From Escherichia coli (GTDB lineage Bacteria > Pseudomonadota > Gammaproteobacteria > Enterobacterales > Enterobacteriaceae), in assembly GCF_024223415.1 (NCBI RefSeq), contig NZ_CP100500.1: DNA of 64,000 bases. One strand, written 5' to 3'. Positions 49,083-51,091 of this stretch are shown here, one piece after another (the stretch's first letter is position 1; every line of letters begins with the position of its first letter). The notes beneath the pieces are model-generated. The model saw only the letters and a program-made list of their open reading frames with translations. It did no database searches and had not been told where the DNA came from. The position numbers were made by a program, and so were the translations under genes.

Positions 49083-49767
49083 TTAAATGCCGAGTGGGAA
49101 AATATCATGGCCTTGTTCTTGCCAACTGGTGAGTTGCTGCTGTTGGGCGGAGGTTCGATTTTCACCGCACCACACCAGCAATGTACGGCCTTCGAATAGT
49201 TCAGGGCGTAGTTGATTGAGCGAGTGGGCGAGGACATCAATGCGCCATCCTTGTTGACTGGCAATCCAGCCCTCCAGCCACAGACGGGTGGTATCCTGAA
49301 TATTCCAGCCAACCACCAGCGCATCTTTACCCTGTTTTTTACGTGCCGAAGCCAGACAAATGGCGATGTAGTTGATCAGTACGCCGTCGAGGATCGCCAG
49401 CAGCGCCTGGAGAGTCGGTTGTTGGCACTGAAGCCGTCGGCGCAGAGGAATAAACAGATGTGTGGTGAGTGTCTGGGCGGGGTAATCCTGACCGCGCTCT
49501 TTGATCCACGTTCGCAGGCTATGTAGATTGCCGCTTTGCAGGTAAGTCAGTAATGTTTCTTGCTGATCGCGCCAGCCGTTCTGCACATCAACATTTTCAT
49601 TACTGAGCAGCATTTTAACTTTGCTGACCTGCACGCCGTTGTCGATCCAGCGTTTGATCTCGCGGATCCGGTCAATATCGGCATCGTTGAACAGCCGATG
49701 ACCGCCGTCTGTCCGTTGCGGTTTCAGCAATCCGTAACGCCTCTGCCACGCGCGTAACGTGACAGGG
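49083..49767 (-). pseudogene. mlrA: MerR-family curli regulator MlrA (YehV), 5'-truncated by prophage insertion
   Basis: Minus-strand translation matches MlrA from ...[40 protein letters not shown]... to the native C-terminus; the first ~16 codons (MALYTIGEVALLCDIN, part of the HTH) are replaced by phage DNA. Confidence 0.85.
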
Positions 49768-49804
49768 ATTAAGGGTAAACTAACTGATTTTACAAGTTTT
49801 TATT

Positions 49805-51091
49805 TTACCCCACTTTCTTATGGGGCATACATGGGACACTTTCAGATAGTCTTTTGTTAAGGAGTTCTATCTGTTCGTGATTGTTGTCTTTCATCCATGC
49901 TCCGTAAACATTGAATACCATTTGTGCGTTTGTGTGGCCCATCTGGCTTGCGATAAAACTAGGATTAGCTCCAGCGGCAAGTGACCAGCATGCATAAGTA
50001 TGCCTGGATTGGTACGATTTTCTGTGTCTCAGACCTGCGCGTTTTAAGATACTTGTCCATGACTCCCTGATGGAGTCAACCTTATAGTGCGGTCCGGAAA
50101 ACTGCCGCTGTTTTATTACCTGAGGACTAAAAACAAAAGTGCATTTATGCACAGTACTTCTCCCATATTCCCTCTGCTTTACCTCTACAGAATGTTGCTT
50201 TCCAAGCATGGTCATTTCCGCCTGACTTTTAAGAGCATCAATAGCTGGTTGAACCAGATGAATTGTCCTTCCGGTGCCAGCATCGGTTTTTGGTGGAGTG
50301 AATTCGCCAAGTTTTGTATAATTCCTACGGATGGTTATAGTCCTTGCTTTAAGGTCTATATCTTCCCATGCCAGCGATACCAACTCCCCGTGACGAATAC
50401 CCGTGTATACAGCGAGAATCCACAGGTTTTTTGTTTGTTGATGACGGCAAGCCTCAATAAAACGAATAAATTCGTCACGGGTGAGAGGATCTGGTTTTAC
50501 CTTGGACTTTTTTAAGGGAGCCAGACCGTTAAATGGGTTTCCTGAGGTATAACCATTATCTGTTGCAAATTGAAACATTCCAGCTATGGTTGTCATATAG
50601 TAGTTTACCGTGACCACTGAGCGCCCTTTTATGGAAGAAGTCTTTCCATTAGAAAGCTTTTGGTAACCGGTCAACAAATCTCTCCTTACGAAAAGTAAAT
50701 CCTCTTTTGTTATGGATGAAACCAGTTTTTTTTCACCTAACATTGGTAACATGTTTTTAATTACTGACTGGTAACGGTTAAGTGCATTCGCACAAATCTC
50801 AATTTTCTTAAGGTCCAACCATTTTTCCGAAAGTGCCTTAACGGTTATCTCTCTTTTTCCCAGACCAAAGTGTTTCAGGTTAGGGGAATTAGGGAACTGC
50901 GCGGCGTAGTCGAAACTCCCCATTCTGATTGCAAAACAAACGGAAGTGCGAAGTTCACCTGCGATCTTCCGGTTTTTGGCGGTGTCAGGAACACCGAGGT
51001 TTTCTCTGACACGTTTGCCATTATAGTGAAACCATATACGGAGTGATCCTCCATGGTTTTCAACGCCTGTCGGGTATGATACGTTACTCAT
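49805..51091 (-). CDS. int: Phage tyrosine integrase
   Basis: 428-aa ORF; C-terminal catalytic-domain residues (RHTYACW, GHTNAQMVFNVY); transcribed toward the att junction. Confidence 0.9.
   Translation of the reverse strand: MSNVSYPTGVENHGGSLRIWFHYNGKRVRENLGVPDTAKNRKIAGELRTSVCFAIRMGSFDYAAQFPNSPNLKHFGLGKREITVKALSEKWLDLKKIEICANALNRYQSVIKNMLPMLGEKKLVSSITKEDLLFVRRDLLTGYQKLSNGKTSSIKGRSVVTVNYYMTTIAGMFQFATDNGYTSGNPFNGLAPLKKSKVKPDPLTRDEFIRFIEACRHQQTKNLWILAVYTGIRHGELVSLAWEDIDLKARTITIRRNYTKLGEFTPPKTDAGTGRTIHLVQPAIDALKSQAEMTMLGKQHSVEVKQREYGRSTVHKCTFVFSPQVIKQRQFSGPHYKVDSIRESWTSILKRAGLRHRKSYQSRHTYACWSLAAGANPSFIASQMGHTNAQMVFNVYGAWMKDNNHEQIELLNKRLSESVPCMPHKKVG

Follow-up and report, generated by a model that had tools for sequence, protein, structure and literature searches.

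The locus analysed here raises the question of what has become of the curli regulator gene mlrA (yehV) in an Escherichia coli strain in which the gene stops short of its own 5' end and gives way to a phage integrase. All analyses refer to a stretch of 64,000 nt of E. coli DNA from contig NZ_CP100500.1 (GCF_024223415.1), called the window in the following. Ahead of the junction it carries the chromosomal genes osmF, yehY, yehX and yehW (45199-48935, plus strand) and, between yehW and mlrA, the small gene yohO (48916-49023, minus strand). The 3' fragment of mlrA that follows (49083-49766, minus strand), identified by DNA identity and Pfam, consists of codons 17-243 and the TAA stop codon. It agrees in 684 of 684 bases with two intact copies of mlrA, from a K-12-like genome and from strain XYEH3934, and the minus-strand translation of 49083-49850, which terminates in DIFPLGI and the stop, is identical to the intact 243-aa MlrA from P17 to the end. 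The intact protein of the K-12-like genome (L001) begins with MALYTIGEVALLCDINPVTLRAW. Alignments to intact mlrA let the junction be read directly: homology breaks at 49766/49767, which is the boundary between bacterial and phage DNA, and past the break the window has GATTAAGGGTAAAC where intact mlrA has ATTAATATCACAAAG. A first-pass annotation, made from the letters alone, had described MlrA homology that runs from the native C-terminus and then switches to phage sequence, and the full identity up to 49766 with int and xis beyond it bears this out. From the span it gave for the feature, 49083-49810, the junction stands and the end coordinate has to be corrected to the boundary at 49766/49767, as the span overlaps int by a few bases. 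The displaced 5' end of mlrA has no match anywhere in the window in a search tolerating up to three mismatches.

The attachment core was defined by a five-way alignment of attL in the window, attB of XYEH3934, attR of strain GF60 and both ends of the record of phage BP-4795. Aligning to an intact mlrA had been proposed earlier as the way to find this core, and it led directly to CACGCGCGTAACGTGACAGG, a sequence of 20 bp (49747-49766) that is common to attB, attL, attR and attP and covers mlrA codons 17-23 in the second helix of the helix-turn-helix (HTH). It occurs as a single copy in the window, compared to 0 copies expected from shuffled sequences, and a search tolerating up to two mismatches found no second core in the window. 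As neither the mlrA 5' end nor a second core is present inside the window, attR has to lie outside of it. The first 20 bases of the BP-4795 record are the core and the record ends just before it, and where the site is split in a genome, the match on the attR side begins at base 183 of the attB query, the position at which the core starts. The far junction of GF60 shows the order phage arm, core, G and then TTAATATCAC...CAT; here the 5' remnant of mlrA, which adjoins btsS, encodes only MALYTIGEVALLCDINPVTLRA followed by a stop codon, a stub of 22 aa.

Two details of the GF60 attR deserve mention in their own right. The base directly after the core is G in GF60 (L006:3141-3170) and A in attB (L009), with the sequences reading CAGGGTTAAT and CAGGATTAAT, respectively; this is a synonymous change from AAT to AAC at Asn16 and may go back either to the phage, by way of the crossover, or to polymorphism in the host. 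On the same side (L006:2677-3207) the 22-aa stub and the native promoter of mlrA face into the prophage, where some 200 bases downstream a DinI-like gene lies in the same orientation, and from this arrangement an RpoS-dependent read-through from the mlrA promoter into dinI would be conceivable.

The junction also behaves as expected in an in silico PCR. Primers of Shaikh & Tarr for the yehV junctions and the expected product sizes are given in PMC3874044. Primers F (50257-50276) and B (49453-49475) yield 824 bp in the window, the published size for the left junction, and the PCR across attL that had been suggested for checking the insertion is thereby positive in silico. The site of primer A belongs to the displaced 5' end of mlrA and is absent from the window, and in intact loci primers A and B give the published product of 340 bp in silico.

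Beyond the core lies the phage arm of attL (49767-49804), which reaches to the int stop codon and has almost the same sequence as bases 21-58 of the BP-4795 record. With the integrase stop at 49805-49807 and the first phage base at 49767 the distance is 38 bases, in line with the about 40 bp estimated before. The gene that ends here encodes a full-length tyrosine integrase of 428 aa (49805-51091, minus strand; PHROG phrog_1, E = 4.5e-83), which is identical to the BP-4795 integrase in 422 of 428 aa (99%) without gaps, and it is followed by the gene of an 84-aa excisionase Xis (51125-51379, minus strand; phrog_539, E = 1.6e-37), with xisR found at the matching place in related genomes. Both int and xis are thus directly visible next to attL, which identifies a yehV-integrating module. 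The alternative that the sequence upstream of the mlrA fragment is native mlrA variation, which the first-pass annotation had itself named, or that the contig is an assembly chimera, can be considered refuted and is left with next to no probability: past 49766 there is an integrase with 99% aa identity to that of BP-4795, then xis and a complete early region, the same junction exists in 452 independently assembled genomes, and the position of the break coincides exactly with the core shared by attB, attR and attP.

From 51380 to the window end at 64000 PHROG matches describe the early region of a lambdoid prophage, including small early-left genes, which runs off the window. Among its genes are those for an anti-repressor-like ORF6N protein (53159-53980), an SPFH-domain lipoprotein (53949-54776, minus strand; phrog_200, E = 6.8e-115), a CI/LexA-type repressor (57295-57987, minus strand), a helicase (59500-61155), a primase (61157-62125), RusA (63162-63476) and the antiterminator Q (63457-63891), after which the window ends 109 bases later; the late genes and any stx or nleA genes would lie beyond this end. 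Compared to Q of Stx phages of the H-19B and BP-4795 types, the identity of the Q region is only about 80%. In gene order the early region agrees with phage phi467 and with the prophages of strains GF60 and Ch1. An HNH/NUMOD4 homing-endonuclease-like ORF (58868-59500, plus strand; phrog_59; PADLOC HEase E = 7.8e-24) abuts the helicase gene from upstream, within the replication module. A small, apparently hydrophobic ORF of 62 aa (54773-54961, minus strand) overlaps with its stop the start of the SPFH gene, and neither of these two has a PADLOC match. Among ten early-region proteins PADLOC recognised no defence system, the matches being restricted to generic HTH, helicase and homing-endonuclease models.

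This gene content bears on the question whether the element is still mobile. It might be a decayed, immobile remnant, which would make the disruption of mlrA permanent; only 14 kb of the element are visible, and its relatives at mlrA, in GF60 and Ch1, are riddled with IS elements or pseudogenes. We nevertheless regard this as unlikely, if as the most serious of the other readings, as a full-length ORF is present for each of int, xis, the CI-type repressor, helicase, primase, RusA and Q. Moreover, the 24.7-kb flank is 100% identical between the window and XYEH3934, a 4.7-Mb human isolate with an intact mlrA. This identity to a strain whose site is empty, together with the absence of any substitution in the mlrA fragment, suggests that the integration happened recently and argues against long decay.

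We are thus highly confident that the window shows attL of a lambdoid prophage inserted into the 5' end of mlrA, with the gene split, DNA-binding MlrA lost and excision as a possible way to restore it. The tyrosine integrase would have acted by site-specific recombination at the 20-bp core in codons 17-23. Codons 17-243 would have stayed beside yohO and yehW, now behind the phage arm and int, and codons 1-16, the native RpoS-dependent promoter and one copy of the core would have moved to the far end, where related genomes suggest that the 22-aa stub is all that is encoded. Since the window contains neither attR nor the 5' remnant, the full split is reconstructed from these related genomes, and attR of our strain is predicted to consist of a second CACGCGCGTAACGTGACAGG, TTAATATCACAAAGC...CAT (mlrA codons 16-1) and btsS.

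What the insertion means for the protein depends on which part of it is missing and on whether the phage supplies a substitute. The displaced N-terminus had been placed within the MerR-type HTH, and this was confirmed: Pfam assigns residues 4-72 of intact MlrA to MerR_1 and residues 5-42 to MerR, and residues 3-72 align to the DNA-binding domains of the solved MerR-family proteins CarH, GlnR, MtaN, TipA and MerR. Codons 1-16 are directly seen to be absent from the window mlrA, which hence has no complete N-terminal MerR-type HTH. For the fragment ORF Pfam reports MlrA_C and MlrA_helical as complete and MerR_1 as partial; the fragment keeps both the helical and the C-terminal domain of MlrA and, of the MerR HTH/wing, the final part. 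The phage arm provides no replacement start, as there is no ATG, GTG or TTG in the mlrA frame in the arm or before codon 29, and in this frame the arm contains TAA at 49800-49802 followed by 11 sense codons; a complete mlrA N-terminus fused in frame, which had been mentioned as the finding that would speak against a disruption, is not there. The earliest conventional start is TTG 49730 (codon 29) with a GAGG 9 bases upstream, and the resulting 215-aa ORF matches positions 26-68 of the MerR_1 model only and has no MerR hit. With helices assigned from knowledge of the MerR family and the Pfam coordinates, the break is predicted to remove the first HTH helix, and with translation beginning at codon 29 the second (recognition) helix would be lost as well. 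A scan of 48900-51500 found no minus-strand promoter-like site upstream of the mlrA fragment and no terminator-like site between int and the fragment, the total of promoter-like sites in this region being not above shuffle expectation. As a conventional start, a promoter and the first HTH helix are all missing, the cell should be without DNA-binding MlrA, and poor activation of csgD, curli and biofilm would be expected. It is probably the DNA binding that this loss of function concerns.

The domains that remain lead to another reading of the locus. Since int and the mlrA fragment are co-oriented without a terminator-like site between them, a truncated protein may be made: read-through from the int/early-left operon could express the fragment, starting from TTG 49730 (215 aa) or from a non-canonical codon, and the product could keep an activity that modifies mlrA function, for example binding of the partner proteins DgcM and PdeR or partial curli control. 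We judge this to be clearly improbable. The two genes share a strand, are only 38 bases apart and have the GAGG at a suitable place upstream of TTG 49730, and both MlrA-specific C-terminal domains are intact and unmutated; against this stand the incomplete HTH and the fact that, as known from phage lambda, int and early-left transcription is normally low in a repressed lysogen. The published data cut both ways. Distal mlrA fragments are strongly expressed after prophage induction (PMC5931665), and when over-expressed in recombinant form they restore Congo-red affinity in part without restoring biofilm (PMC5931665, citing Uhlich 2016). The same work considers the distal fragments unlikely to be DNA-binding factors and reports that csgD is further repressed upon induction (PMC5931665). 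It also describes truncated proteins that can arise when the distal part of mlrA is transcribed by run-off (PMC5931665), and the co-orientation of int and mlrA without a terminator-like site is compatible with this idea. Going further, an SOS-induced MlrA without HTH (215 aa from TTG 49730) might titrate DgcM and PdeR, and together with excision the prophage would then be a two-mode regulator of curli and biofilm instead of a simple knockout. This is speculative and a good deal less probable than read-through as such; if true, it would affect the c-di-GMP module proteins DgcM and PdeR in an apparently non-O157 background.

Loss of DNA-binding MlrA by prophage insertion, the reading that we prefer, is also what the literature on this site would predict. 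The insertion, its mechanism, the phenotype, the reversibility and the question of a truncated protein have all been published already, and the curli phenotype and its reversibility we infer from these reports. Such insertions have been studied in O157:H7 and in non-O157 Shiga toxin-producing E. coli (STEC), where the inserted prophage interrupts the DNA-binding motif of MlrA, and curli, Congo-red binding and biofilm are diminished or lost altogether (PMC5931665, PMC3874044, PMC8065619). This agrees with the first-pass annotation, which had expected reduced csgD activation. Spontaneous or induced excision regenerates unoccupied sites and restores mlrA, as stated in PMC5931665, which cites Uhlich 2013, 2016 and Shaikh & Tarr 2003. 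In O157:H7 excised cells are rare and loss of the prophage is seldom recovered on plating (PMC5931665). For the window prophage, precise excision would rebuild wild-type mlrA, given that Int and Xis look intact and that the fragment is unmutated. In strains carrying the junction, Congo-red binding is expected to be poor and curli or biofilm to be scarce at low temperature, except where excision or a suppressor intervenes, and curli can also be lost or regained by other routes.

How common the disruption is was counted directly in 5,426 complete E. coli genomes, a genome being taken as junction-bearing when at least 80% of window 48900-51200 was present. The mlrA-int junction was found in 452 of them and an uninterrupted site, searched as a 401-bp stretch centred on the site, in 4,944. 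The site is occupied in about 8-9% of the genomes, and nearly all of these have the junction seen in the window. Among STEC, mlrA insertions have been reported in 53 of 55 O157:H7 strains compared to 4 of 19 non-O157 strains (PMC3874044). Insertion at this site is not confined to EHEC, as isolates from chicken meat (GF60) and chicken faeces (Ch1) carry the prophage without an annotated stx: in both, a porin gene, tRNA genes and lysis genes follow Q. For the window strain, flank identity suggests that the recent integration took place in a background that is not obviously EHEC. The rest of this flank includes Rfam matches to naRNA4 (27958-28035, plus strand; 88.3 bits) and to the Peptidase-S11 RNA motif (39684-39764, plus strand; 72.8 bits), both above the gathering score. 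These are ordinary E. coli chromosomal features, the latter probably lying upstream of pbpG if the gene order of a related genome applies.

The main practical value of the junction lies in annotation and phenotype prediction. In GF60 and Ch1 RefSeq/PGAP lists the mlrA fragment under WP_042030043.1 as an ‘HTH-type transcriptional regulator MlrA’ of 228 aa (L002:3184-3870 and L008:19981-20667) without a pseudogene flag, and the start chosen for it is an ATC codon, the one candidate that the phage arm offers (window 49767-49769, minus strand). With the fragment labelled as a normal MlrA, screens for gene presence or absence miss the disruption.

Compared to known phages, the closest match at the attachment site is BP-4795 (AJ556162, from E. 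coli O84:H4), an Stx1-converting lambdoid phage integrating into yehV, which has the same att core and the same arm on the int side. The int-xis module shows 95-98% DNA identity to BP-4795 (95%) and to phage JLK-2012. Beyond about 2.1 kb, however, the window diverges from BP-4795, and its immunity and replication region instead resembles phi467 and the prophages of GF60 and Ch1. The earlier statement that yehV is a known integration site of Stx-converting and related lambdoid phages is in accordance with the 99% identity of the integrase to that of BP-4795 and with PMC8065619, which lists yehV among the insertion sites of Stx phages and cites BP-4795 and VT1-Sakai.

The mlrA prophages of GF60 (NZ_CP172185.1) and Ch1 (NZ_CP127316.1) have an attL identical to that of the window and show 96-98% identity over 84-89% of window 44000-64000, with 11-16% unmatched, and are thus neither the same genome nor the same prophage. 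The former carries insertions of IS3, IS21 and IS66 in its tail genes and the latter has a frameshifted int and terminase. Prophage insertions in mlrA/yehV of O157:H7 were reportedly described by Shaikh and Tarr in 2003 and by Uhlich et al. in 2013 and 2016. The occupants of this site in O157:H7, namely Sp15/VT1-Sakai (Stx1), CP-933V and stx-negative prophages, use the same gene and give a left-junction amplicon of equal size, and the ‘proximal region of mlrA’ published for these insertions agrees with the site in the window. In contrast to them, the body of the window prophage is a different mosaic and the host background is nearest to the human isolate with intact mlrA. A different way of losing the gene was seen in E. 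coli O145 RM9154-C1 (L007:3184-4890), where mlrA is cut more distally by an IS3-family element followed by phage-type genes (TerB, DUF3927) and homology with the window breaks off at about 49523; this is a second, independent route of mlrA loss.

A prophage that interrupts a regulator gene and can rebuild it by precise excision is known from active lysogeny, for example from phi10403S in comK of Listeria. The mlrA prophages differ from this case in that excised cells are rare (PMC5931665) and a programmed, non-lytic excision cycle is not known from them. What the window has in common with active lysogeny are its prerequisites, that is an interrupted regulator gene, intact int and xis genes and an unmutated mlrA fragment.
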